In this document: positions 473 to 63,227 of the stretch, piece by piece
How positions within the stretch are numbered: position 1 is the first letter of the stretch
How the letters are laid out: each line of letters begins with the position of its first letter
Origin: Patescibacteria group bacterium
GTDB lineage: Bacteria; Patescibacteriota; Microgenomatia; UBA8517
NCBI GenBank assembly: GCA_022868165.1
Contig: JALHYA010000004.1
Span: 16,457 to 80,456, forward strand
Length of the DNA: 64,000 nt
Direction of reading: 5' to 3'
Made by a program: the position numbers and the translations under genes
Notes under the pieces: model-generated
Seen by the model: only the letters and a program-made list of their open reading frames with translations
Databases searched by the model: none
Told to the model about the DNA's origin: nothing

Positions 473-808
473 ATGCTAAATCTTTTGTACGCAGCCACCG
501 ATATTAATCTTCAGCCCTCCGGCCAATTTTCCCAACTTGGAAACTTAACTATCGGCGGAATTGTGTCGGGACTGATTAGATTTATTCTGGTAGTTGCAGC
601 ACTTGTGTTTTTCTTCATCTTGGTTATCGGCGGAATTCGCTGGATAGCATCAGGGGGTGACAAAGCACAAACGGAAGCCGCTAGAAATCAAATTACGGCA
701 GCATTGGTCGGCTTGGTTATTGTTTTTGCCGCTTGGGCGATAGTCCAGCTAATTAACACATTCTTCGGAATCAACATCTTCCAACTCACAATTCCTTCAG
801 CGGTTTGA
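473..808 (+). CDS. VirB2/TrbC-like T4SS pilin, paralog 2
   Basis: 111 aa; 'SGGDKAQTEAARNQI' motif, two TM helices, paralogous to 132-461 and 1340-1639. Confidence 0.55.
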   Translation: MLNLLYAATDINLQPSGQFSQLGNLTIGGIVSGLIRFILVVAALVFFFILVIGGIRWIASGGDKAQTEAARNQITAALVGLVIVFAAWAIVQLINTFFGINIFQLTIPSAV

Positions 809-864
809 GCTCTAGAGGTTAGAAATTGGAAGCTAGAAACTAGATTATGAAGTTGGATAGTGGA
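809..864. repeat. Palindromic mini-repeat, GAGGTTAGAA/GGAAGTTGGA unit family (copy A), intergenic between convergent genes
   Basis: gaggttagaaattggaagctagaaactagattatgaagttggatagtggattag; related copies at 1255-1310, 3836-3925, 39935-40030, 40553-40636. Confidence 0.6.
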
Positions 865-1230
865 TTAGAACTTTCTCCAATTCTCTTTAAGTTTTGTAAG
901 CTTCCTACCAACAACATTATATCTTTCGATTAGTTCGTCGGCTTTATTGGGCGAAAGATACTTCCTCGCTTTGGCAAAAGCTATGTGATTTATCATCTCA
1001 TTTGCCTCCCCGATTGCGTCTCTGAGAAATTTTTTGAATACGGCCACCGTTTCTCTTTTTGCGTATCCTTCTGCAATAAGGGCGGGAATAGCTCTAGAAG
1101 CTCTTCGCATTTGGTCGGTCAAAAGAAATTCTTCACGTCTCGGGAATTCCTTAATCAGATCCTCAATTTCCAAAGACAACCCGAACGATTCTTCGTAAAC
1201 GTCTAAATCAAGAAAGCTTTTAATTGCCAT
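865..1230 (-). CDS. Four-helix-bundle protein (23S rRNA intervening-sequence protein family)
   Basis: 121 aa; 'LLTDQMRRASRAIPALIAEGYAKR' matches the conserved core of the 23S rRNA-IVS / four-helix-bundle family (TIGR02436-like). Confidence 0.65.
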   Translation of the reverse strand: MAIKSFLDLDVYEESFGLSLEIEDLIKEFPRREEFLLTDQMRRASRAIPALIAEGYAKRETVAVFKKFLRDAIGEANEMINHIAFAKARKYLSPNKADELIERYNVVGRKLTKLKENWRKF

Positions 1231-1254
1231 CTCGTTTCACTATCCCACATCTAT

Positions 1255-1310
1255 CCTCGCTAATCCAGCCTCTCACTTCTAACTTCCAACCTCTAAACCA
1301 GGCTTGCTCA
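1255..1310. repeat. Palindromic mini-repeat, same family (copy B, reverse orientation)
   Basis: tctcacttctaacttccaacctctaaacc is the reverse complement of the ggtttagaggttggaagttagaagtgaga unit. Confidence 0.55.
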
Positions 1311-1339
1311 AAGCACTTCATTAGGTTAAACTTTGCTTA

Positions 1340-3835: not shown

Positions 3836-3925
3836 ATTATTTATTGTTAGAGGTTAGAAGTTTGAAATGGGAAGTTAGAAAATTCCAATATCTAGCATCG
3901 ATGTCTAGCGTCCAGCATCCAACTT
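3836..3925. repeat. Palindromic mini-repeat, same family (copy C) with internal inverted arms
   Basis: gaggttagaagtttgaaatgggaagttagaaaattcc...ctagcatcgatgtctagcgtccagcatccaacttccca (tgggaagtt.. / ..aacttccca inverted). Confidence 0.6.
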
Positions 3926-3943
3926 CCCACATCAAACAAAAAA

Positions 3944-8325: not shown

Positions 8326-9423
8326 ATGGAACAACACGCCATACCGCAACAAATATCTTCCTACCAATTCCGGTTGGTGGGAGATATGACCCTCAAGCAG
8401 TTCTTTCAGCTTGCAGGGGGAGCTTTGGTTGCACTTCTTTTCTATGCCGCCCCTCTTCCCGGCTATGTTAAATGGCCTTTTATAATTGTTTCGGCTCTTT
8501 TGGGGGCTGCTCTGGCATTTTTGCCTTTTGAAGAAAGACCGCTGGAGCGATGGATTATTGCTTTCTTTAGAGCCGCCTACTCCCCCACAAGCTTTGTCTG
8601 GCAAGAAACAAAAGCCACGCCCGTGTTTTATCGAGAAGAGGCCAAGGCTCCCACGGAAAAGATAATTGCCCCCGGCGGAGAAGCCGCCTTAAATGCATAT
8701 CTTGCCGCAACTGCCCAACCCCAAGGATTTTTGGGAAAACTAGAACTGGGGGAAAGTGGATTTCTGTCTAAGCTCGGCAAGCTTTTTGGGGCACCCGCGC
8801 CGGTTTCCGCACCGACGGTTGCTGTTCAACCTAGTGTTCCCGTTGCCCCAAGCCCAGCTCCCCTTCCCGCAACCGTGCTGGTTGCCAGACCCCAACAACA
8901 AATTGGGGTAAAGATTCCTACAACTCAATATATTAGAGTTGTTCCTTCGGCAAAACCAAAAATGGTTGTCGAGGAAAAACTAGCCGGCGGTAAGCCAATA
9001 ACCGAAAGGCTGCTTGATATTCAACCCATGGCCGGCCGGGGTTTTGCTCCCGGCGGGAAAGCGGCGCAGTTTTCTCCCGAGGCGGCCCCACCCATTCCGC
9101 CGACCACCCCAAACACCATTGTCGGTCAGGTCCTTGATTCTTCCGGCCGAATTATCGAAGGTGCAATTTTGGAAATTCGCGATGCCGCCGGTCGCCCCGT
9201 ACGAGCTCTTAAAAGCAACAAGGTCGGCCACTTTGTCGTTGTCACCCCATTGCAAAACGGCCGATACGAAATTATTACGGAAAAAGACGGATTTAGTTTT
9301 GACCCTGCAACCTTTGAAGCAACGGGAGAAATAATTCCGCCGATTGCCATTCGCGCCAGAATCAACATCGTCGCCGCCGAACTGCCAACAATCAGCAATC
9401 AGCAATCAACAATCGGCCAATGA
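8326..9423 (+). CDS. PrgI/VirB3-like T4SS membrane protein with a C-terminal beta-sandwich (carboxypeptidase-regulatory-like) domain
   Basis: N-terminus 'LVGDMTLKQFFQLAGGALVALLFY' plus two TM helices typical of the PrgI family; C-terminal 'GQVLDSSGRIIEGAILEIRDAAGRPV..' CarD-like beta-sandwich signature. Confidence 0.5.
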   Translation: MEQHAIPQQISSYQFRLVGDMTLKQFFQLAGGALVALLFYAAPLPGYVKWPFIIVSALLGAALAFLPFEERPLERWIIAFFRAAYSPTSFVWQETKATPVFYREEAKAPTEKIIAPGGEAALNAYLAATAQPQGFLGKLELGESGFLSKLGKLFGAPAPVSAPTVAVQPSVPVAPSPAPLPATVLVARPQQQIGVKIPTTQYIRVVPSAKPKMVVEEKLAGGKPITERLLDIQPMAGRGFAPGGKAAQFSPEAAPPIPPTTPNTIVGQVLDSSGRIIEGAILEIRDAAGRPVRALKSNKVGHFVVVTPLQNGRYEIITEKDGFSFDPATFEATGEIIPPIAIRARINIVAAELPTISNQQSTIGQ

Positions 9424-16176: not shown

Positions 16177-17538
16177 TCAAAGCCTCTGTTTTATCCCCAA
16201 GATATCCTGGCGGATTTGCACATCGGTCGAAGCCATCTGGGTTATTTTGTCCACAGCGTGCATTACGGTAGTATGATCTCTTCCTCCCACAAGCCTCCCA
16301 ACTTCTTCCAGAGGAAGCCCCAGGTCCCTTCGAAGTAAATACATCAGTATCTGCCGGGGTCTGGCGACGGGCCTTGCTCTGGAATCTCCAAGAAGGGAAC
16401 GTTTTCCTAAGGAGAAGTGTTTGGACACCGCGGAGATGACGTTTTCCGGATTAACCCTTTTTGTTTGCAAAGCTTGCGACTCCCCCTTACCGAGAAGTGA
16501 CTGAATAAGCTCTTCGGTTATTTGTGTATTTTTTAGTTTCGCTTCAGAAGAAAGCCTTACCAAAAACCCTTCAAGCTTTCGGGCTGAGTCGGTGTTGGCT
16601 GCAATAAGCTGAACCAATTCCATAGGAAGCTCTATTCCCCTACCGGCCGCCTTTATCTGCAAAATCGCACAGCGCAACTCAAAATCCGGGGGCGCAATGT
16701 CAACAATTAATCCCGCCTCAAAACGGCTTCTTAATCTTTCCTCGAGTTTTGATATTTCGGAAGGGGGCCTGTCGGAGGTTAAAATAATTTGACCCCCGGC
16801 GCTGGTTACGGCGTTGAATGTGTGGAAGAATTCTTCCTGCACTGCGTCCTTGCCAGCAATAAACTGAATGTCGTCTATTAAAAGGGCATCAAGTTTGCGG
16901 TATTTGTTTCTGAAAGATTGTGTCGTTTTGTTTCTTATTCCCTCCACGATGTCGTTGGTAAAATCTTCTCCGGTACAAAAAAGAACGTTTGGGTTGGGAT
17001 TTTTGCTTAAGATTTCATACCCGACAGCAATCATTAAATGGGTTTTCCCAACCCCAACGCCTCCCCAAATAAAAAGAGGGTTATATGCGCTCCCCGGAGT
17101 TTTTGAAACCGCGTCAGCCGCAGCCCACGCCATTTGATTGGAAGAAGAGACGGCAAAGTTTTCGAAAGTAAACCCCTGTCTAATCCTTGCCCTAGCTAGC
17201 GCCGTAGAAAGCACTTCCAAAGATTCCTTTTCCTGATTAAACAAAGGGGCGAGAGAGTTTTCGATTGCTTTTGTTTTTGGCGCCTGTTTTACTACAAAGA
17301 GGATGTCGCAGGGCTTCCCCAACTGTTTTGTCAAGCTGTCTTGAATCAGTCCAAAATATCTCGACTCAATGGTTGTCTTAACAAAAGGGGAATTGCAACC
17401 GACCTGTGCGGTTGCCCGATCGTTTATGTCGGCAAGATCTATTAGGTGGGTTTGGGAAAACCATGTAGAGAAAATTGCGGGGGAGACTGCAACCTTTATA
17501 CTCTCAAGGACATCGTGCCAGAGTCTATTTGCATCCAT
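16177..17538 (-). CDS. dnaA: Chromosomal replication initiator DnaA
   Basis: AAA+ P-loop 'GGVGVGKTHLM'; C-terminal DnaA-box-binding domain 'RPRQILMYLLRRDLGLPLEEVG..DHTTVMHA'. Confidence 0.9.
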   Translation of the reverse strand: MDANRLWHDVLESIKVAVSPAIFSTWFSQTHLIDLADINDRATAQVGCNSPFVKTTIESRYFGLIQDSLTKQLGKPCDILFVVKQAPKTKAIENSLAPLFNQEKESLEVLSTALARARIRQGFTFENFAVSSSNQMAWAAADAVSKTPGSAYNPLFIWGGVGVGKTHLMIAVGYEILSKNPNPNVLFCTGEDFTNDIVEGIRNKTTQSFRNKYRKLDALLIDDIQFIAGKDAVQEEFFHTFNAVTSAGGQIILTSDRPPSEISKLEERLRSRFEAGLIVDIAPPDFELRCAILQIKAAGRGIELPMELVQLIAANTDSARKLEGFLVRLSSEAKLKNTQITEELIQSLLGKGESQALQTKRVNPENVISAVSKHFSLGKRSLLGDSRARPVARPRQILMYLLRRDLGLPLEEVGRLVGGRDHTTVMHAVDKITQMASTDVQIRQDILGIKQRL

Positions 17539-17884
17539 TGTGGGAGGACAGGAGTAAGGGGATAGTAACTAAGTTATCAACAATCCGTCAATAGTCAAAA
17601 AGTCTCAGTTTTGTTATCCCTCGAGCTTTGTCGTAAACGCATTTTCAAAAAATGCTCGTCGGGTGTAGCACAAAGAAGATTGCAAATCTCACTCCTCGCT
17701 TGACGTTTCACCAGTCGGAATTTCTCTTACGAGATACAACATCCTTTTTATGACTGGTTCGACACATTTTTGAAAATGGTTTCCTCGCGCTCTCGGGGCA
17801 AACAAAGACTTTGGTAGAATTTTCCTTATCAACAATCCGTCAATCCCCAAAAAACTGGAGACTGGAAAATGGAGATTGGAAACT
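17539..17884. other. Region upstream of dnaA with DnaA-box-like repeats and AT-rich palindromes (candidate oriC / DNA-unwinding element)
   Basis: Perfect 19-mer TTATCAACAATCCGTCAAT at 17574-17592 and 17826-17844 (TTATCAACA differs from TTATCCACA by 1 nt); palindromes GCATTTTCAAAAAATGC (17640-17656) and CATTTTTGAAAATG (17769-17782). Confidence 0.5.
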
Positions 17885-18005
17885 TTATGACATCCTCCCC
17901 GCTCCAAAGAGCGGGGTTTCCCTCCAAAGGAGGATGACATATCGGCGTTCAATTCATCTCCGCAACAAATTGCGGAGCGTTCTTGAATGCTGTTATAATA
18001 CCCCT
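17885..18005 (+). promoter_or_regulatory. Repeated promoter/hairpin module (copy 1): long imperfect hairpin, second hairpin, extended -10 (TGtTATAAT), leaderless start for rpmH
   Basis: ~88% identical to 47740-47859; tgtTATAAT at 17992-18000, ATG 6 nt downstream; hairpins catcctcc/ggaggatg, ccccgctc/gagcgggg and ctccgcaa/ttgcggag. Confidence 0.55.
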
Positions 18006-18146
18006 ATGTCAACAAAAAGAACCTATCAACCGAAGAAAAGGAAAAGAGCAAAAACTCACGGATTTCGTGCGAGAGTTAAGTCCGCTTCCGGCCGCAGGGT
18101 CCTTAAAAGAAGGCGCCAAAAAGGCCGAAAAAGGCTGACTCCATAA
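18006..18146 (+). CDS. rpmH: 50S ribosomal protein L34
   Basis: [46 protein letters not shown], canonical L34. Confidence 0.9.
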
Positions 18147-20035: not shown

Positions 20036-21225
20036 TGAGGTTCCTCGAAAAGATTTTCTTTTTCCTACTTATCTTTTTTCTTCCAACACAAATAGGCTTA
20101 CACCTTTGGCCAAACTGGTCTTTTGTCGCCGGAATTAGGGTCGATTATCTTTCCCCGACAATTTATTTAACGGATTTATTAATTCTGGGGATTTTACTAA
20201 CCTCACTAGTCAATCTCGGGTGGTATAAAAAGAGGAAATTCCTGGTTGTTGTGGCCGGCCTTTTGGTTTTCGCCATCATAAATTCATTGCGGGCGTTAAA
20301 TCCCTTGGTATCAATATTAAAGTGGGGGAAAGTTTTGGAGCTGACACTCTTGGCTTATTATATAATTGCTTCAAACCGCGAGAGAGTAAAGACACTAATA
20401 CTTAAGGCTCTCCCGTTTTCGATTGTAACCTTTGCCCTAATTGGGTTTTTACAGATTATTTTCCAAAAAACATTGGGCGGTCCTTTATATTATTTGGGAG
20501 AGAGAAGTTTCTCTGCGACCACCCCCGGCATCGCGCTTTACAACATTTTCGGGAAACTTCTTCTTAGGCCCTATTCAACCTTTCCTCACCCCAATGTTTT
20601 TGGCGCTTATATGTTTGTGGCAACATTAATATTTGTTGTTTTGAAAAGCAAAAAGTCCAGGTCGGACTATTTAGTTGTTCTAATTGGATTTTTGGCGTCT
20701 TTCTTGTCCGGGTCTTTAGCTGTTTATCTTGGAACAGTTGTTGTTTTATCCCTAAAATTTTTAGGAAAGAGTAGGGAAAAGCTAACAAAACTTATTCCGG
20801 CGGGGGCAATTCTTCTAAGCTTTGCTTTTTTGTTTCTCTCTCCACAACTTCTTTCGCAAAAATTTCCTGAAAGCATAGAAAAAAGAATTCTCTTGGCGAG
20901 AGCATCCGCAACCATGGTCTCAAAGTCGCCGTTATTGGGGGTAGGATTTAACAATTTTATCGTAAACCTTCCGGCCTATGCGGCAAAAGATTCTTCTTTG
21001 TGGATACTCCAACCGGTACACAATATTTTTCTTCTAACTTTTGTCGAGACAGGGATATTTGGCTTGTTATTGTTGGGATATTTATTTCAAAGGACATTAT
21101 CGAAAACATCCCCGCTAGCTTTAGCAATAGTTTTTGTTATCGTGACGGGAATGTTCGACCACTACTGGCTTACTCTCCAGCAACCCCAAATTTTGTTCGC
21201 TCTTTTGATCGGACTCCTGTGGTAA
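20035..21225 (+). CDS. O-antigen ligase (Wzy_C)-family polytopic membrane protein
   Basis: 396 aa, ~10 TM helices, 'HNIFLLTFVETGIFGLLLL' Wzy_C-like loop. Confidence 0.55.
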   Translation: MRFLEKIFFFLLIFFLPTQIGLHLWPNWSFVAGIRVDYLSPTIYLTDLLILGILLTSLVNLGWYKKRKFLVVVAGLLVFAIINSLRALNPLVSILKWGKVLELTLLAYYIIASNRERVKTLILKALPFSIVTFALIGFLQIIFQKTLGGPLYYLGERSFSATTPGIALYNIFGKLLLRPYSTFPHPNVFGAYMFVATLIFVVLKSKKSRSDYLVVLIGFLASFLSGSLAVYLGTVVVLSLKFLGKSREKLTKLIPAGAILLSFAFLFLSPQLLSQKFPESIEKRILLARASATMVSKSPLLGVGFNNFIVNLPAYAAKDSSLWILQPVHNIFLLTFVETGIFGLLLLGYLFQRTLSKTSPLALAIVFVIVTGMFDHYWLTLQQPQILFALLIGLLW

Positions 21226-39629: not shown

Positions 39630-40835
39630 TTAGGCTGAATCGACAATCGTCATCTCCGCGTTAGCTGAAATCTTTTCCAAGGAAGCGGGTTTGTTGTTGA
39701 AAAAGGCATATGAGGCGATATATGCGGCGTTGTCCGTGCAGAGATTTGCGGGAGGAAATCGTAAATCAACTTTTAACTTTTCACTTTTCACTTTTAACTC
39801 AAATACTTGTCGAAGACGAGTATTAGCCGATACTCCTCCAGCTAAAAGAAGGGATTTGGGCTTGAATTTCTTTACTGCGTCCAGAGTCTTTTTAACTAAA
39901 ACGTCAACGATTGCCTCCTGTATTTCTGCTGCCAGCCTGGAAGTTAGAGGTGGGAAGCTTGAAGCTGGATGTAGATGTTGGAGTTTAGATTTATTCCAAC
40001 TTCTAACTTCTTTGTCCAGCTTCTCACCTCTATTTTCCAATTTCTCTGTTTCCCTAAGCACCGCTGTCTTAAGGCCCGAAAAACTGAAGTCAAAATTATC
40101 CTCATCAATCATCGGTCTGGGAAGTAGATTTAGTTGGAAGTGGGAGGCAGGAGGCTGGAAGTTCGCTGCGGCGGCGGCGATGGCTGGTCCTCCCGGGTAG
40201 GGAAGTCCCAAAAGACGGGCGGACTTGTCAAAAGCCTCGCCGGCCGCATCATCCCTTGTTCCTCCAATCCACTCTATTTTTCCCCGCCCGCCAGCGCTAC
40301 GCGCAAGCGTTGCGGGCGCGGCGTGGCCTTTCATCAGAACCAAATCCGTATGTCCTCCGGAAACAACCAGTGCCAGTGCCGGAAATTCCGGCCGACTATC
40401 CGTTAGCCAGTTGGCGTATATGTGTGCCACAAGATGGTTAACCGGAATAACAGGCTTTTTCCATAAATAGGAAAGGGTTTTGGCCGTTTCTACTCCGACC
40501 AAAAGGGAACCAATAAGGCCCGGCCCGACGGTTACGGCAATGGCGTCTATATTGGAAGATAGAAGATGGAGGTTTGAAGCTAGATTTTGATGTTGGATAT
40601 TAGATTTTTCCTCCAACTTCGAACTTCTAACTTCAGAGACAGTACTTAGTGCTTCGGAGATAACAGGAAGAACGCTGAGAACCTGCTGGCGTGCAGCCTG
40701 CTCCGGGATTACGCCGCCAAATTTGGCCTGCATTTCCGCGCTCGATGCAACAACATTGGAAAGAATTTTTGTTCCGTCTTCGACAACTGCCGCTGCAGTT
40801 TCATCACATGAGGTCTCTATCCCCAGAATTTTCAT
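39630..40835 (-). CDS. tsaD: tRNA N6-adenosine threonylcarbamoyltransferase TsaD carrying two in-frame low-complexity insertions derived from palindromic mini-repeats
   Basis: 'MKILGIETSCDETAAAVV', 'VTVGPGLIGSLLVG', 'LVVSGGHTDL', 'DFSFSGLKTAV' TsaD/Kae1 blocks; 401 aa vs ~340 typical; extra segments coincide with repeats at 39935-40030 and 40553-40636. Confidence 0.8.
   Translation of the reverse strand: MKILGIETSCDETAAAVVEDGTKILSNVVASSAEMQAKFGGVIPEQAARQQVLSVLPVISEALSTVSEVRSSKLEEKSNIQHQNLASNLHLLSSNIDAIAVTVGPGLIGSLLVGVETAKTLSYLWKKPVIPVNHLVAHIYANWLTDSRPEFPALALVVSGGHTDLVLMKGHAAPATLARSAGGRGKIEWIGGTRDDAAGEAFDKSARLLGLPYPGGPAIAAAAANFQPPASHFQLNLLPRPMIDEDNFDFSFSGLKTAVLRETEKLENRGEKLDKEVRSWNKSKLQHLHPASSFPPLTSRLAAEIQEAIVDVLVKKTLDAVKKFKPKSLLLAGGVSANTRLRQVFELKVKSEKLKVDLRFPPANLCTDNAAYIASYAFFNNKPASLEKISANAEMTIVDSA
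39935..40030. repeat. Palindromic mini-repeat (copy D) inserted in frame in tsaD
   Basis: ggaagttagaggtgggaagcttgaagctggat...tccaacttctaacttctttgtccagcttctcacctc; arms gaggtgggaagcttgaagctgga / tccagcttctcacctc. Confidence 0.7.
40553..40636. repeat. Palindromic mini-repeat (copy E) inserted in frame in tsaD
   Basis: gaagatagaagatggaggtttgaagctagattttgatgttggatattagatttttcctccaacttcgaacttctaacttc. Confidence 0.7.
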
Positions 40836-44578: not shown

Positions 44579-45384
44579 AGCTTGAAGCCGGCGAGGTTGC
44601 CTCGATTTATTATCACGACATTTTTGATTATCCTCTAACCCCTTTTGATTTAATCCGCTGGCGGGCGGGGGAAAAGGTAAGACCTAAAGATTTGAATTTT
44701 GAGATTACCCAAGAGAGGGGATACCTTTTTGTCAAAGGCCGCAAGGGACTGATTTTCAAAAGAACGATTCGCGAGAAAAACTTCCAGAGGAAAAAGGAAA
44801 TTGCCCAAAGCGCGGCAAGACTTCTTGCCAAACTTCCGACAATAAAAGTAATCGGACTTACGGGTTCGTTGGCAATGCAAAATGCACCGGATTCGTCCGA
44901 TATAGATTTTTTGATAATCACACGGAAGGGAACTCTTTGGACAACAAGGCTTTTGTCGTTTTTGCTTTTGAAATTGGCAGGTATTCCCACCAGAAGATTT
45001 GGAGACAAAAAGGAAAAGGACAAGATTTGTTTAAATTTGTGGCTCGACGAAACCGCACTTAACTGGCCAAAAACGCAAAGAAACGCTTATACAGCCCACG
45101 AAATCGCACAAATAATCCCGGTGGCGGATAAAGACAAGGTATTCGAAAAATTCCTGTGGCTGAACCGCTGGATAGAGAAGTATTGGCCCAACGCGATTAA
45201 GATAAGAAAAGCTATATTCCGTTCTGGAAAAAAGTCAGGCCCGAGCTTTATCGAGTTTATCGCCAGAAATTTTCAGTTCTGGCACATGAGAGGTAAGATT
45301 ACCCGGGAAAGAGTTTCCAAGAAAAAAGCTCTTTTTCATCCTCAGGATTGGGGAGAAATAGTTAAAACGCGATTTTACACTTGA
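44575..45384 (+). CDS. Polymerase-beta-superfamily nucleotidyltransferase-domain protein
   Basis: 'IGLTGSLAMQNAPDSSDIDFLII' (GS...DxD NTase motif). Confidence 0.5.
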   Translation: MKLEAGEVASIYYHDIFDYPLTPFDLIRWRAGEKVRPKDLNFEITQERGYLFVKGRKGLIFKRTIREKNFQRKKEIAQSAARLLAKLPTIKVIGLTGSLAMQNAPDSSDIDFLIITRKGTLWTTRLLSFLLLKLAGIPTRRFGDKKEKDKICLNLWLDETALNWPKTQRNAYTAHEIAQIIPVADKDKVFEKFLWLNRWIEKYWPNAIKIRKAIFRSGKKSGPSFIEFIARNFQFWHMRGKITRERVSKKKALFHPQDWGEIVKTRFYT

Positions 45385-47739: not shown

Positions 47740-47859
47740 TTATGACATCCTCCCCGCTCAAAAGAGCGGGGTTCCCTCTAAAGGAGGATGACATATCAGC
47801 GTTCAATTCATCCCCGACTAAGTCGGGGTTTTCTTGAATGCTGTTATAATATACGCCCT
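47740..47859 (+). promoter_or_regulatory. Repeated promoter/hairpin module (copy 2) in front of a hypothetical gene; extended -10 TGtTATAAT, near-leaderless ATG
   Basis: ~88% identical to 17885-18005; second hairpin differs in sequence but keeps pairing (ccccgact/agtcgggg vs ctccgcaa/ttgcggag). Confidence 0.55.
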
Positions 47860-51212: not shown

Positions 51213-52255
51213 AAAATTAAGCCCCCTAAAGCGATTGCGACACCCACAATTGTATAGAACTTGGTCTTTGTATTCAAATTAATTGCCATAAATCCCAACA
51301 GGGCAGTGATTGCCCAGTAAAAAGACGCAACTTTTCTTTTGCTCCAACCCAAATCCAATAGCCTGTGGTGAAGGTGACCGCGGTCGCCCCACACCGGAGA
51401 CCTGCCCCCTATTATGCGTCGCACAATAGTATAGCCGGTGTCAATCAAAGGTACGCCCAAAACTACAATCAAGGTGCCAACTTTGGTTGTTGCCAGAATT
51501 GAAAGAACCGCCAAAAGATATCCGGCCAATGCGGCGCCTCCATAGCTCGGCATTATTTTTTGCGGATAAATGTGCCAAGGTAAAAATCCCAAATAAGCCC
51601 CGGCGGTTATTGCGGCAAGAATTATAACCGGCCATTGAGTGATATCGGCCGAAAACTTTAGGGAAAGAACGGCTATGGTTGCTGCGGCAATCACAACAAC
51701 TCCCGAAAGCTGGCCGTCAACCCCCTTGGCTCCCATATTGAGCATGTTCATCATAAAAACTATCCAAAAAAGAGCGAACAAATCCGACAGCACCCAGATG
51801 CTTTTTGCATCCCCGAAAAGGCTAAAGTGCAGTTGTGGCTGGGAAAGATTAATTATCCCGCCCAAAGGATTTGAAATGAATGCTATTCCGATTCCTGCGG
51901 CAATCGGGAAAAGTGCGGCCACAAAGCCAATGAGTAGCCTGAAATATGGGTTTAGGTCATATTTGTCATCCAGTAGCCCCATGATGATAATTACGGCTCC
52001 CCCGCCCAAAATCGCCAAAATATATTTGTCGTTGGGTAGAAACAGGAAGGAGGCAACGGCTATTGCCGCAAAAATCGCCAAACCTCCGGCTCGCGGCGTA
52101 GGGTGAATATGGATAATCGCGGGGTGCTTATGTTTTTTAGGGTCGTCCATAAGCCCAAATTTTTTAGCAAACCTGATTACCAGGGGTGTTGCAGCAAAGG
52201 CGATAAGTGCGGAAACTAAAGCCGGCAGAAGAGCCAGATTAAATATGCTATTCAT
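51173..52255 (-). CDS. Glycosyltransferase family 4 polyprenyl-phosphate phospho-sugar transferase (MraY/WecA-like)
   Basis: 360 aa, ~10 TM, 'FMMNMLNMGAKGVDGQLSG' corresponding to the MraY/WecA 'N..DG(L)DGL' motif region. Confidence 0.55.
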   Translation of the reverse strand: MNSIFNLALLPALVSALIAFAATPLVIRFAKKFGLMDDPKKHKHPAIIHIHPTPRAGGLAIFAAIAVASFLFLPNDKYILAILGGGAVIIIMGLLDDKYDLNPYFRLLIGFVAALFPIAAGIGIAFISNPLGGIINLSQPQLHFSLFGDAKSIWVLSDLFALFWIVFMMNMLNMGAKGVDGQLSGVVVIAAATIAVLSLKFSADITQWPVIILAAITAGAYLGFLPWHIYPQKIMPSYGGAALAGYLLAVLSILATTKVGTLIVVLGVPLIDTGYTIVRRIIGGRSPVWGDRGHLHHRLLDLGWSKRKVASFYWAITALLGFMAINLNTKTKFYTIVGVAIALGGLILWLTYRPNLTKKT

Positions 52256-52261
52256 AGCAGT

Positions 52262-52400
52262 TTCAAGGATACCACGAATTTTATTCGTGGAGGAATTGAA
52301 CCTGATATATCATACTTCGATGGTACTCAGTATGATACTGAGCTTGCCGAAGTATCATCCTTCCCTCAAGGGAAACCGCAAACTTTAGTTTGCTTAAGGA
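52262..52400. repeat. Cluster of four adjacent hairpins/palindromes between the GT4 gene start and the upstream small membrane-protein gene
   Basis: ccacgaattttattcgtgg; atcatacttcg..[ctcagtat/atactgag]..cgaagtatcat; ttccctcaagggaa; gcaaactttagtttgc. Confidence 0.5.
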
Positions 52401-59304: not shown

Positions 59305-60309
59305 ATGGACCCTCTTATTACTCTTGTTGTAGTTCTGGCGGCGCTGGTCGTCATCGCAGTTTTTATTAACAGAAAGCTGTCGGAATTGAAAGAGGCGCAG
59401 AAACCTTCGGAAGAACTTTTAGAAATAATTAAAATGCTTCAGACGGGTTCCAAAGAAGACAGAAGGGTTCTGTTGGATTCCCTACAGAAAAATACCCAAA
59501 GCCTGAATGAAAGGCTTGATAATGCCGCAAGGGTTATTTCCCAGGTCCAAAGAAATTTGGGTGAAATGAGCGAAGTTGGAAAGGGAATAAGAACTTTGCA
59601 GGAATTTTTACAATCTCCAAAATTAAGAGGAGGTTTGGGAGAAGAAGTTTTGAAGGAAATGATTAGCCAAACCTTTCCCAAGAACGCCTTTCATTTGCAA
59701 TATCCTTTCAAATCTGGGTTTAAGGTTGATGCTGTTTTGAAAACCGAAGCAGGGCTTTTGTGTATCGACTCGAAATTTCCCATGGAGAACTTTAACGTCA
59801 TGCTTAAAGGGGAAACCGAAGCTGAAAGAAATGCTGGGAAAAAACAATTTGCCGCCGACGTTAAGAAACACATAGAAGATATCTCAAGAAAATACATCTT
59901 GCCCGAAGAAGGAACAATGGATTTTGCCCTAATGTATATCCCCTCCGAGGCGGTTTATTACGAAGTTGTAAACATCCAGGAGCTAAGCAATTTTGCCAGA
60001 AGATTAAGGGTCTATCCCGTATCTCCAAACACCCTCTATGCGCATCTTCAGGTCTTACTTTTATCCTTTGAAGGAAAAGATTTGGAGACAAAATCGCGCG
60101 AGGTATTCAGAATCCTTAGGGCAATTCAGAAAGATTACTCAAAGGTTGGGGAGAATTTGGGAGTTCTGCAAAAGCACCTAAACAACGCTTACAACATAAT
60201 GAGTTCCGTTATTACATCTTTTGTCCAGCTTGGACAAAAGATTACTTCAACCCAAAGCCTGGGGGCGGGAGTTAAAAAAGAAAAGCTTTTGGAAACCAAA
60301 GAGAAGTGA
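59305..60309 (+). CDS. rmuC: DNA recombination protein RmuC
   Basis: N-terminal TM + coiled coil; 'YILPEEGTMDFALMYIPSEAVYYE...RVYPVSPNTLYAHLQVL' RmuC core. Confidence 0.7.
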   Translation: MDPLITLVVVLAALVVIAVFINRKLSELKEAQKPSEELLEIIKMLQTGSKEDRRVLLDSLQKNTQSLNERLDNAARVISQVQRNLGEMSEVGKGIRTLQEFLQSPKLRGGLGEEVLKEMISQTFPKNAFHLQYPFKSGFKVDAVLKTEAGLLCIDSKFPMENFNVMLKGETEAERNAGKKQFAADVKKHIEDISRKYILPEEGTMDFALMYIPSEAVYYEVVNIQELSNFARRLRVYPVSPNTLYAHLQVLLLSFEGKDLETKSREVFRILRAIQKDYSKVGENLGVLQKHLNNAYNIMSSVITSFVQLGQKITSTQSLGAGVKKEKLLETKEK

Positions 60310-63227
60310 GCAACTTCGAAAAAAAATTAAACAAAGAACAGCAGGAAGCGATAAAACATAAGGCAGGCCCACTTTTGATTATCGCCGGTGCGGGAACCGG
60401 CAAAACCACAGTTATAACCGAACGGATTAAATATATTATTCTTTCCAAGCTTGCCAAACCCGACGAAATTTTAGCACTTACATTTACGGAGAAAGCGGCA
60501 AGAGAAATGGAAGAAAGAGTCGACGTTGCAATGCCCTACGGATATACCCAGATGTGGATTTCTACATTTCATTCCTTTTGCGACAGGATTTTAAGAAGAG
60601 AGGCGCTTCATATTGGTCTTGACCCGAAATACAAATTAATGGGCGAGGCGGAAACTATCCAGCTAATCCGGAATAATTTATTTAAATTCGACCTGGATTA
60701 TTTTAGACCGCTAGGAAATCCCAATAAATTTATTGGAGGAATGCTTCAACATTTTTCCAGACTTCAGGACGAAGATGTTTCCCCAATTCAATATATGGAC
60801 TGGGTCAAAAAACAAAAAACCAAAGCCAAAAGAAAAAGCAAAGAAGAAAAATTGGAAATAACAAAATGGGAGGAACTTGCCAAAGCTTATAAGGCTTACG
60901 ATGAACTGAAAGTAAAAGAGGGATTCATGGATTATGGAGATTTGATAGTCAAAGCCTTAAAACTTTTTAAAGAAAGGAAAAATATTTTGAGGCAGTATCA
61001 AGAACAATTTAGATATCTTCTAATTGATGAATTTCAGGACACAAACTTTGCTCAAAATGGGTTGTCCGTGCTTTTATCAGGACTTAAGAAAAACATAACG
61101 GTGGTTGGGGATGATGACCAATCAATTTACCGCTTTAGGGGCGCCGCAGTCTCCAACATTATCCAGTTTCGCAAAAATTTCCCAAGGACGAAAGTTATTG
61201 TTCTTACTAAAAACTATCGTTCTACCCAGGAAATTTTGGACAAATCCTACGCTCTTATCCAACACAATAATCCGGATAGGTTGGAGTCGGTTGAAAAAAT
61301 AGACAAGCATCTGGTTTCCCAAGTCGCAAAAGATGGGGAGGAGATTAAATTTATTCATTCCGACAGAGTTGAAAACGAAGCGGACTCGGTTGCCAAAAAA
61401 ATTCAGGAACTTATTAAAGAAGAAGACTATGAATTTAGACATTTTGCTATTTTGGTTCGTGCCAATAATCACGCGGAGCCTTTCGTCCGCGCATTTCAAC
61501 GCCACGGAATCCCCTCTCAATTTTTGGGACCGGGGAGGCTTTTTAAACAGCCGGAGGTAGTGGATCTGATTTCATATTTGAAGGTTCTTTACAACTTCGG
61601 GGATTCGGTGGCTTTTTACAGATTATTATCGATTGAATATTTTGATATATCGGCCAGGGACCTGGCGATGGTAGGCAACTATGCGAAACGGCTCAGACTT
61701 TCTCTTTTTGAGGCCTGCGAAAAAGTTGACGATATTTTTGTTTCAAACGAAACAAAGGAAAAAGTAAAAAAAGTAATTGGCGTTATCGATAAACACCTGA
61801 AGCTTGTAAGAAAAGAAACTGCGGGGCAGCTTCTTTATTATTTTCTGGAAGATACGGGGCTCTTGCAAAAACTTCTTAATCCCAACTCTCCCGATACGGA
61901 AAAAAGGGCAGCAAACATTTCCAAGTTTTTCGACAGATTAAAAACTTATGAAGTCGACCACGAAGATGCGACCATTCCGGCAGTAGTTGATTGGATAGAA
62001 CTTTCGTCGGAATTGGGCGAATCTCCGTTGGCTGCGGATACGGATTGGACAGACATAAATGCCGTAAATATTTTAACGGCCCATTCTGCAAAGGGATTGG
62101 AGTTTCCAGTAGTGTTTTTGGTTAATCTTGTGGCGCAGCGATTCCCGACGATTGAAAGAAGGGAACAAATTCCGATTCCGGACGCTTTGGTTAAAGAAAT
62201 TTTGCCGGTCGGGGATTATCACCTGGAAGAAGAAAGAAGACTTTTCTATGTTGGAATGACCCGGGCCAAAGATTTGCTGTTCTTTACTGCTGCAGATTAT
62301 TACGGAGAAGGCAAAAGGGAAAAACGTCTCTCCCCTTTTATTTTTGAAACACTTGGAGATGAAGTTATTTCTTCCGAACAACTAACCTCCAACGTTAAGC
62401 AGCTGTCTTTCTTGGATTATGCCGCCCCCAAGATACCAGATACAAGATACGAAATACCTTCATTACACGTCGACTATCTTTCTTATTCCCAGATTGAAAC
62501 TTTCAGAACCTGCCCTTTGCATTACAAGCTTAAATATATTGTCAAGATTCCGACTCCGCCGTCTGCCTCTCAAAGTTTTGGAATTTCTATACATGCCGCC
62601 ATCAAAAGGTTTTTCGATTTAGTTGCTTTAGGTGAAAGGGCAAACGAGAAACTGATTTATAAATGTTTGGAAGGCAGTTGGGTGAAGGAAGGGTATTTGG
62701 ATAAAATCCATGAGAAAAAATTCTTCGAGAAAGGAAAAATTTATTTGTCGGGATTTCTAAAGGAAGGTTTTGACCCAGAAAATTTGCCGGAGGCGATGGA
62801 GCAGATGTTTACCGTTCCGATAATTTCAAAAGACAAAAAACAATATTTAAGAGTTGGCGGAAAGATTGATAGACTGGATGTTTTCCCTGACGGCTCAATA
62901 GAAATAATCGATTACAAAACCGGCGCGAGTATGCCTAAACAAAAAGAGCTGGAAAACAATCTTCAACTTTCGTTTTATGCACTTGCCGCGACTAGTATTC
63001 CAGATAAACCATTCGGAAGACTGCCGGAAAAAATAAAACTTACACTTTATTTTCTTGACCAGCAACAGAAGTTTTCGACCACAAGAACAAAAGAAGACTT
63101 GGAAAAGGCGAAGGAAGAAATTTTCAAAACTAAAGAGGAAATAGAAAAATCAGATTTCAAATGTTCTGGCCACATGTTTTGCCAAAACAACTGTGAGTAT
63201 TCACTTTTCTGTAGGGTCCAAGAGTAA
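60306..63227 (+). CDS. UvrD/PcrA-like SF1 helicase fused to a C-terminal PD-(D/E)XK nuclease with Cys4 (Cas4/AddB-like Fe-S) cluster
   Basis: Walker A 'GAGTGKTTVI', 'LIDEFQDTN', 'VGDDDQSIYRFRGA' helicase motifs; C-terminus 'IEIIDYKTG' nuclease motif and 'CSGHMFCQNNCEYSLFC'. Confidence 0.7.
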   Translation: MSNFEKKLNKEQQEAIKHKAGPLLIIAGAGTGKTTVITERIKYIILSKLAKPDEILALTFTEKAAREMEERVDVAMPYGYTQMWISTFHSFCDRILRREALHIGLDPKYKLMGEAETIQLIRNNLFKFDLDYFRPLGNPNKFIGGMLQHFSRLQDEDVSPIQYMDWVKKQKTKAKRKSKEEKLEITKWEELAKAYKAYDELKVKEGFMDYGDLIVKALKLFKERKNILRQYQEQFRYLLIDEFQDTNFAQNGLSVLLSGLKKNITVVGDDDQSIYRFRGAAVSNIIQFRKNFPRTKVIVLTKNYRSTQEILDKSYALIQHNNPDRLESVEKIDKHLVSQVAKDGEEIKFIHSDRVENEADSVAKKIQELIKEEDYEFRHFAILVRANNHAEPFVRAFQRHGIPSQFLGPGRLFKQPEVVDLISYLKVLYNFGDSVAFYRLLSIEYFDISARDLAMVGNYAKRLRLSLFEACEKVDDIFVSNETKEKVKKVIGVIDKHLKLVRKETAGQLLYYFLEDTGLLQKLLNPNSPDTEKRAANISKFFDRLKTYEVDHEDATIPAVVDWIELSSELGESPLAADTDWTDINAVNILTAHSAKGLEFPVVFLVNLVAQRFPTIERREQIPIPDALVKEILPVGDYHLEEERRLFYVGMTRAKDLLFFTAADYYGEGKREKRLSPFIFETLGDEVISSEQLTSNVKQLSFLDYAAPKIPDTRYEIPSLHVDYLSYSQIETFRTCPLHYKLKYIVKIPTPPSASQSFGISIHAAIKRFFDLVALGERANEKLIYKCLEGSWVKEGYLDKIHEKKFFEKGKIYLSGFLKEGFDPENLPEAMEQMFTVPIISKDKKQYLRVGGKIDRLDVFPDGSIEIIDYKTGASMPKQKELENNLQLSFYALAATSIPDKPFGRLPEKIKLTLYFLDQQQKFSTTRTKEDLEKAKEEIFKTKEEIEKSDFKCSGHMFCQNNCEYSLFCRVQE

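Follow-up and report, generated by a model that had tools for sequence, protein, structure and literature searches.

Palindromic repeats inserted in frame into protein-coding genes are known as Rickettsia palindromic elements (RPEs; Ogata et al. 2000, 2002), sequences dispersed over intergenic and coding DNA, unrelated housekeeping genes included, of which each family is translated in a fixed frame, as set out in PMC10969869. Such protein-coding palindromes have been treated as a peculiarity of Rickettsia, and PMC10969869, a review from 2024, only speculates on their wider occurrence. Another kind of hairpin element is represented by the intervening sequences (IVSs) of rRNA genes. The 23S IVS of Coxiella has terminal inverted repeats, holds an open reading frame (ORF) for the S23p protein in its loop and contains tandem heptamers, GACAGAT among them, that vary between strains (PMC4990558). 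Moreover, PF05635 ORFs are present in rRNA insertions of the Candidate Phyla Radiation (CPR; 10.1101/2024.02.27.582315). Here, a stretch of 64,000 nt from a Patescibacteria group bacterium (hereafter the window; positions 16,457 to 80,456 of contig JALHYA010000004.1) is analysed, in which the essential gene tsaD contains two in-frame hairpin repeats, A and B, with relatives in intergenic DNA that include the two arms of a cassette around a PF05635 gene. These extra TsaD segments are probably recent, in-frame and lineage-specific insertions of a dispersed hairpin repeat. An RPE-like insertion of a palindromic mini-repeat into this essential gene had been proposed in a first-pass annotation of the DNA, and is supported by the empty sites in the closest orthologues, the TsaD tree and the similarity among the copies. 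That annotation did not include the PF05635 cassette, the composition of the arms from heptamers or a third, GC-rich insert in tsaD.

In-frame hairpin repeats in tsaD

The 401-aa product of the tsaD ORF matches the Pfam TsaD family (PF00814) with E=7.9e-75 and 252 bits, against a cut-off of 24.8, and can be aligned from end to end with the solved TsaD structures. These comprise 327-354 aa, in agreement with the initial remark that the protein is longer than usual (401 vs ~340 aa), and the extra residues fall at about aa 65-94, 171-184, 226-231 and 265-300. The additional length had been attributed to two palindromes; both are real and in frame, but a third insert, a GC-rich palindrome of 39 nt, also contributes. 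Altogether, ~60 additional residues derive from the three inserts, whose peptides include EVRSSKLEEK, KSKLQHLHPASSF and AAPATLARSAGGR. The inserts are not present in the non-CPR TsaD proteins compared, namely those of the solved structures.

When 30 relatives are aligned, the columns of the metal-binding residues His134 and His138 (HxxxH) and Asp368 show no variation, and AlphaFold models the TsaD core with confidence (pTM 0.79; TMt 0.84 to YgjD of E. coli/Salmonella). Each of the three inserts sits between secondary-structure elements, and it is precisely at the inserts that the model is of low confidence (aa 75-77, 175-183 and 276-292), with pLDDT <50 for aa 276-292 within the hairpin A insert. 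The position between conserved TsaD blocks, in loops, that had been expected for the inserts is thus found in both the alignment and the model. As far as can be judged from the sequence, TsaD has preserved its reading frame and catalytic residues despite the inserts and, on the strength of the model, we infer that these are translated as flexible surface segments that would leave TsaD catalysis intact.

Palindrome A is composed of 45-nt arms, 73% complementary, separated by a 12-nt loop, and A and B share 80% identity across 76 nt (E 7e-14 in the window). The boundaries initially given for B (40553-40636) hold, whereas A, earlier placed at 39935-40030, extends over 39938-40039. Folding of the mRNA strand, foreseen in the first-pass annotation as a check for each copy, yields RNA structures that beat shuffled controls (z -4.9 for A and z -3.3 for B). 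Both lengths, 102 and 84 nt, are multiples of 3, only two of the six frames of A and one of the six of B are free of stops, and tsaD uses the same element frame for both, giving rise to a family-typical peptide, EVRS...KS.(I/L)QH...AS. Thus, the insertions keep the reading frame, as had been claimed.

Each arm consists of ~7 degenerate heptamers in a row, whose consensus on the purine-rich strand is TRGARGT; one arm reads (TRGARGT)n and the other its complement, with a self-identity of 0.54 at lag 7 and 0.49 at lag 14, compared with 0.26 for the whole window. A, B and a solo intergenic hairpin, E, are alike at 73-80% over their full length, including the non-periodic loop-proximal part (AAATCTAA..TCCAACATC..ATC.AGCTTCAA). 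In local alignments, against a null of 8 +/- 1.4, the copy at site 1 (B) scores 44 with that at site 5 (A) and 33 with E, while its scores with the inserts at the orthologous site of P0004 and P0012 are 26 and 21, respectively (P#### designates TsaD homologues and L### the DNA loci compared). The exact 12-mer GGAAGTTAGAGG alone has 2 matches at one mismatch, a number reached by 6/100 shuffles and hence not significant, so that the significance of the family rests on the long alignments. A repeat search with 8-nt seeds failed to detect the degenerate inserts in the orthologue loci, and Rfam gave no match at gathering score at any copy of the repeat. A peak of word density at 44773-44832 was rejected as ordinary coding DNA.

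Empty sites and lineage-specific gain

The DNA of six syntenic orthologues, taken from the VanW-tsaD neighbourhood, was aligned by codon, and a public protein search provided many Patescibacteria TsaD proteins of 327-416 aa. P0003 (85% core identity) carries none of the three inserts, and P0002 (88% core identity) is devoid of B and of the GC-rich insert. P0002 does share the left arm of A, which is found at site 5 in three separate assemblies, and is without 33 nt of the right arm that the window keeps, an absence that is read as an in-frame deletion. Neighbour joining of 120 TsaD homologues places the window protein inside a clade of ~20 short, insert-free proteins with 77-88% identity, in which an ancestral insert would require at least five separate precise losses. 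Therefore, the empty sites in P0002 and P0003 and the ~20 short relatives argue that the inserts are lineage-specific gains. These comparisons, together with those of the intergenic copies given below, show that this lineage gained the hairpin four times, twice within tsaD and twice in spacers of operons, and likewise that the GC-rich family was inserted at one further tsaD loop.

In the arm that the window has in common with P0002, 24/25 third codon positions are identical, compared with 214/330 (65%) outside the insert, which implies an insert younger than the divergence of the genes, an exchange by recombination or a constraint at the DNA level. Moreover, a one-sided tract of 93-100% identity between both sequences (window ~39960-40115) runs from ~80 nt upstream of A as far as the hairpin loop; the neighbouring DNA is 84-89% identical, and the tract is not continued downstream of the insert. 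It could be a recombination or co-conversion tract ending in hairpin A.

Intergenic copies and the PF05635 cassette

Related copies were found at all three intergenic places named in the first-pass annotation, although those at 809-866 and 1243-1300 are paired arms of one structure and not independent copies (Table 1). B is 77% identical to 815-866 over 52 nt (E 1e-7) and 73% identical to 3850-3926 over 77 nt (E 1e-7), and a profile built from the arms recovers the three places at E 1e-9 to 1e-11. In the predicted fold of 795-1320(-), the two arms pair to a long stem around the PF05635 ORF (z -4.0), delimiting a cassette of roughly 490 bp (809-1300). Purifying selection acts on the PF05635 gene (pN 0.13 vs saturated pS between the window and L010) and, since the arms are still alike across genomes, arms and gene behave as one unit. 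The arms of the tsaD hairpins being those of the cassette stem, the tsaD copies are best read as gene-less (miniature) IVS-type hairpin cassettes.

A scan of genome contigs with the PF05635 protein retrieved 6 loci. The profile of the window arms matches arms at PF05635 genes elsewhere, in L010 (1e-7, 1e-5), L011/L019, L012 and L026, and also the tsaD inserts of P0002, P0047 and P0004. By inspection, inverted heptamer arrays that pair around PF05635 genes are present in L010, L014, L019 and L026, while one arm only was seen in L012 and the second arm of L011 is masked. Furthermore, in a metagenome-assembled genome of Bacteroidales (L015, ~1410-1470), (GGAAGTTA)n is located directly upstream of a PF05635-like ORF, and the link between GAAGTTA-type arrays and the PF05635 family may thus extend beyond the CPR.

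Empty sites were also found for the intergenic copies. The syntenic loci L017 and L018, whose neighbouring 719-aa protein is 63% and 61% identical, respectively, have neither the cassette nor hairpin E. Their last two pilin genes are 65 nt apart, a spacer that the window keeps to the right of the cassette, and the gene junction corresponding to hairpin E is a 35-nt spacer without a hairpin. In L026-L028, which represent a closer relative and encode a PF05635 protein 86% identical, the cassette occupies the same pilin junction as in the window. A different context is found in L019, where two different PF05635 genes (1653-2030 and 2501-2863) are located in one ATP synthase operon, after atpD, with a start that overlaps the atpD stop, and after atpC. 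L025 was considered as an empty site for the cassette in this operon and rejected, since the alignment places the beginning of the contig inside the gene. In addition, the only difference between L023 and L024 is an indel of 46 nt in a heptamer array, flanked by a 12-nt direct repeat, which matches the strain-variable number of heptamers in the Coxiella IVS; together with the half-copy of P0002, this comparison documents decay of copies by deletion and slippage.

In the window, Rfam recognizes two tRNAs and nothing else, it detects no rRNA in L010-L014 either, and the elements are found in spacers and in tsaD. For the same reason, L010 was discarded as a possible rRNA gene with a true IVS. In positions 1-3363 of L010, the PF05635 gene is the only ORF of at least 70 aa in 3.3 kb, though the flanks look coding; another genetic code or a degraded region is a possible cause.

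Table 1. Repeats, cassette components and host gene in the window, with positions counted from its first nucleotide.
Feature	Position	Strand	Description
tsaD ORF	39630..40835	-	Intact, 401 aa; single copy in the window
Hairpin repeat B	40553..40636	-	84 nt, in frame, aa 67-95; site 1, flanked by helix 45-66 and strand 98-103
GC-rich palindrome (different family)	40284..40322	-	39 nt, in frame, aa 172-184; peptide AAPATLARSAGGR, DNA GCCGCGCCCGCAACGCTTGCGCGTAGCGCTGGCGGGCGG
Short older heptamer array	40132..40164	-	~4 units, encodes NFQPPASHFQ; site 4; common to P0002 and P0003
Hairpin repeat A	39938..40039	-	102 nt, in frame, aa 266-300; site 5, flanked by helices 255-268 and 297-324
Tandem heptamer array (AACTTTT)x4.6	39768..39799	-	Encodes ELKVKSEKLKV, aa about 345-356; length same as in orthologues
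Cassette arm	809..866	.	Adjoins the stop codon of the PF05635 gene
PF05635 gene (23S rRNA intervening-sequence protein, four-helix bundle)	865..1230	-	In the cassette loop; E 3.1e-27, weak bAvd match
Second cassette arm	1243..1300	.	Forms a long stem with 809-866
Solo intergenic hairpin repeat E	3846..3937	.	Same family as A and B, ORF-less

Other repeats in tsaD and in Patescibacteria

The GC-rich palindrome lengthens a beta-hairpin turn by 13 aa, placed between His171 and Gly185, and its fold has a z of only -1.1. It is not present in P0002, P0003, P0004, P0012 and P0047, and is found in P0008 with 38/39 identical positions and at the identical codon junction. The TsaD protein of P0008 is only ~70% identical in core columns (60% by BLASTP), and the DNA flanking its insert is visibly diverged. 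P0017 and P0093 contain variants of the insert at the same place. A search of the JGI metagenome collection with a GC-rich 33-mer gave one exact match (L016), with 42 identical nt, which is intergenic, between gatB and the next gene. Being intergenic there and within tsaD here, the 39-mer is a dispersed element too, and its recurrence at one tsaD junction suggests either target preference or exchange of gene segments. At 2155-2250 and 2330-2460, the intergenic region of the 39-mer in L016 also holds a heptamer-array hairpin of GGCTCTA units (z -7.7), whose loop contains two small nested GC hairpins, as well as more GC-rich palindromes.

Two heptamer arrays of tsaD do not form part of the hairpins. 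The older array at site 4 is detected by nhmmer with the arm profile at E 0.015, and an orthologous match in L004 at E 0.005. Along the tandem array at 39768-39799, nucleotide identity between the window and P0002 drops to about 49%, as if the stretch had been overwritten. The corresponding stretch of P0002 and P0003 is, by eye, heptamer-periodic with other units.

Among the 120 homologues, inserts of at least 12 extra residues are found at site 1 (n=21), site 2 (n=8), site 3 (n=6) and site 5 (n=8), and across scattered Patescibacteria the inserts in TsaD recur at the same five or six loops. Where DNA is available, the inserts at sites 1 and 5 are heptamer-array hairpins whose unit sequences vary with the lineage; the folds are significant in P0004 (z -3.5 and -4.4) and P0047 (z -4.1), while in P0012 (z -1.5) the hairpin has decayed. 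Homologous inserts of non-repeat origin in unrelated lineages had been named in the first-pass annotation as evidence that would speak against insertion; similar inserts do occupy the same sites in distant Patescibacteria, but they too are repeat-derived heptamer hairpins. Since the arrays have stops in most frames, selection alone fixes their orientation and frame, and this filter, together with the small number of permissive loops, makes most of the coincidence of sites explicable without site-specific integration.

Variable TsaD loops of scattered lineages additionally contain recurring peptides, SNPT(T/S)LKLRRA, VKEQESKRVKEKL, SK(V/L)K(S/T)QxSK(V/L)P and HPSTG...SSGQA, which suggest several more in-frame repeat families in Patescibacteria. 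They were seen in P0017, P0038, P0081, P0086, P0104 and P0112; in P0019, P0049, P0067, P0071, P0076 and P0082; and in P0027, P0040, P0067, P0071 and P0086. In L006, whose tsaD also holds hairpin inserts, a five-unit array (CCTCTAG TCTCTAA CCTCCAG TCTCCAA CCTCTAA) lies in frame at 20527-20559 within a class-I aminoacyl-tRNA synthetase gene, where it occupies a variable loop without any net gain in length over L009. Heptamer arrays in coding DNA are not limited to tsaD in the window either, where period-7 arrays occur at the C-terminus of ORF 8326-9423 (9389-9414, (CAATCAG)x3.7), in ORF 17811-18146 (17852-17884, (AAACTGG)x4.7) and within a 973-aa ORF at 60306-63227 (62431-62458, (AGATACC)x4). 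A separate family of ~55-nt hairpins (ATATCRGCGTTCAATTCATC...GTTCTTGAATGCTGTTAT) has members at 17939-17996, 47793-47847 and 52254-52308, two of which overlap the starts of small ORFs while one follows groEL.

Origin of the inserts and alternative explanations

According to the explanation favoured here, the hairpin, itself non-autonomous, would spread at the DNA level by copy-and-paste, with the PF05635 cassette as its probable parent or helper. The copies that survive in an essential gene would be those that have a length multiple of 3 and a stop-free frame and land in a permissive loop, a filter through which the same few TsaD loops would be hit repeatedly. Several observations weigh against such insertion. 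The family has only four loci in 64 kb, and its copies are 70-80% alike, none of them demonstrably very recent. No target-site duplication is recognizable when filled and empty sites are compared, the boundaries being blurred in relatives 63-88% identical. No defined termini are apparent, and no transposase or other mobility enzyme turned up, though no transposase-aimed search was made; PF05635, the only gene tied to the arms, is to our knowledge not a known transposase. Similar inserts at the same codon positions in distant lineages would fit ancient inserts or exchange of tsaD segments, and the tract shared with P0002 upstream of A fits recombination equally well. Lastly, the connection between hairpins and cassette consists of the similarity of their arms (E 1e-7 to 1e-8 in the window).

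One alternative is that nothing moves, and that the arrays grow in place by replication slippage while the hairpins arise by template switching (inverted duplication). Such an origin would account for the different unit sequences at the same TsaD sites, e.g., (AGTGCCT)4 at site 1 of P0002 and GGCTGGA/TCTAATC in P0047, for arrays in coding DNA without a net change of length (39768-39799 and the aminoacyl-tRNA synthetase gene of L006), for the slippage-type indel between direct repeats that separates L023 from L024 and for the further period-7 arrays inside window ORFs. However, it does not account for A, B and E being alike along their whole length, including the non-periodic part, which argues for copying from a common source, nor for the same type of arm around PF05635 genes in several genomes or for a GC-rich 39-mer that is identical in unrelated contexts. 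Local origin is therefore unlikely as a general explanation, but slippage and template switching remain a real alternative for at least some of the arrays. A loop extension that is old and lineage-wide, maintained for a function of the protein and repeatedly lost, with palindromy as a secondary trait, would agree with the similar peptides (EV.NWKLE...S.L..L.S) that recur, with site and frame unchanged, in the scattered lineages of P0004, P0012, P0047, P0099, P0066, P0100 and P0118, and with a score of 33 between the site-1 copies of P0004 and P0012 compared with 22 between the two copies of P0004 itself. Nevertheless, besides the five or more independent precise losses that it demands in the clade of the window, this explanation is at odds with the fact that the two window copies are closest to each other and to the intergenic copy, with an insert much less diverged from P0002 than synonymous sites are, with hairpins that are kept while unit sequences differ between lineages and with the predicted disorder of the inserts, and we consider it improbable.

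The stability of the mRNA-strand folds in the window and in orthologue inserts (z -3.5 to -4.4), and the fact that IVS stems of the same build are substrates of RNase III (PMC4990558), would be in line with hairpins retained for a role in the tsaD mRNA, as RNase III or stability sites, with translation being incidental. Close relatives live without the hairpins, though, P0002 has lost one arm and the hairpin of P0012 has decayed, and cleavage within an essential ORF would be costly; such a role, which would be compatible with an origin by insertion anyway, is very improbable as the explanation of the inserts. As regards chimeric joins in tsaD, repeats are a classic cause of misassembly and many contigs with PF05635 are short. 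However, the ORF stays open across three inserts with conserved blocks on either side, the identical protein is recorded from NCBI and Logan assemblies, the left arm at site 5 of P0002 recurs in its separate assemblies, and analogous inserts appear in many independent assemblies, so that an artefact of assembly or binning is hardly conceivable. Insertion of a dispersed hairpin thus remains the explanation that we favour, and it could be extended into a broader one, which we put forward tentatively and with more doubt than confidence. In this extension, IVS-type hairpin cassettes with or without PF05635 would make up one class of mobile elements in Patescibacteria, colonising rRNA helices, operon spacers and, when ORF-less, loops of essential proteins, and the long-unexplained PF05635 protein would act as a mobility or maintenance factor that recognizes heptamer arrays. 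Re-insertion at the same codon junction in distant lineages, to which the GC-rich 39-mer and the one-sided tract at hairpin A point, would in that case be due to a preferred target or to co-conversion of a homing-like kind, and not to selection alone.

Significance

With the tsaD gene described here, a free-standing lineage of the CPR provides a clear case of protein-coding palindromes; the gene concerned is essential, and empty sites serve as controls. If other proteins show the same, statistics of protein length and domains, orthology calls and structure prediction in the CPR would be affected. Moreover, the link with the PF05635 cassette appears to tie Rickettsia-style protein-coding palindromes to rRNA IVS-type elements, and offers a testable lead on the nature and spread of rRNA intervening sequences and on the role of the widespread IVS four-helix-bundle protein. 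The first-pass annotation had considered in-frame palindromes to be undocumented in the CPR, and within an incomplete coverage of the literature no published account was found of hairpins made of heptamer arrays, be it in frame within CPR genes or around PF05635 genes that lie outside rRNA.

Comparison with known systems

The features that characterize RPEs recur in the window, in the form of a dispersed palindrome of 84-102 nt with four loci in 64 kb, which is in frame, encodes a family peptide and is positioned in loops. As with RPEs, a short palindromic repeat is shared by intergenic and coding DNA, sits in frame in a housekeeping gene with a frame fixed for the family, and is accommodated by loops that tolerate insertion. 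However, the host belongs to the Patescibacteria, the copies in tsaD measure 84-102 nt compared with ~100-150 bp, the arms are heptamer arrays linked to a PF05635 cassette, and several unrelated repeat families hit one gene. By analogy, the tsaD hairpins would work like RPEs, from which they differ in build and host, and no membership of that group is claimed.

Regarding the rRNA IVSs with an S23p/PF05635 ORF, such as those of Coxiella and Leptospira, the common traits are an inverted-repeat stem, an ORF in the loop, variable heptamers and the existence of ORF-less as well as ORF-bearing forms. In the present case, the stem around the ORF and the ORF in the loop are found in the cassette only, the heptamers are variable, and a location in rRNA is not observed. 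Instead, the cassette occupies operon spacers (pilin in the window, ATP synthase in L019) without rRNA context, and the ORF-less form is found within a gene, in frame and hence presumably translated, where excision of the IVS kind would harm.

Miniature transposable elements with inverted repeats (MITEs) that fuse or overlap with ORFs (Coxiella QMITE1, PMC5896051; ERIC, BOX and Correia, PMC10969869) are likewise small, non-autonomous inverted repeats that add peptides to proteins, but here the whole element is a heptamer-array hairpin, in which neither short terminal inverted repeats set apart from the body nor a target-site duplication could be recognised, and it is not a typical MITE. The STRR/TAACTGA heptamer repeats of Cyanobacteria, Beggiatoaceae and Bacteroidetes (PMC4679880) are also over-represented and horizontally scattered, with stops that limit their frame; however, they are mainly direct and intergenic, whereas two inverted arrays form an in-frame hairpin in the window. 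Finally, the GC-rich 39-mer resembles the repetitive extragenic palindromes and bacterial interspersed mosaic elements (REP/BIME; PMC3733652) in being a GC-rich imperfect palindrome of 20-40 nt found in unrelated contexts. Unlike these extragenic, high-copy elements, it is intragenic in tsaD, presumably translated and placed at the same codon junction in distant lineages, with an apparently low copy number and one exact match in the JGI metagenomes.

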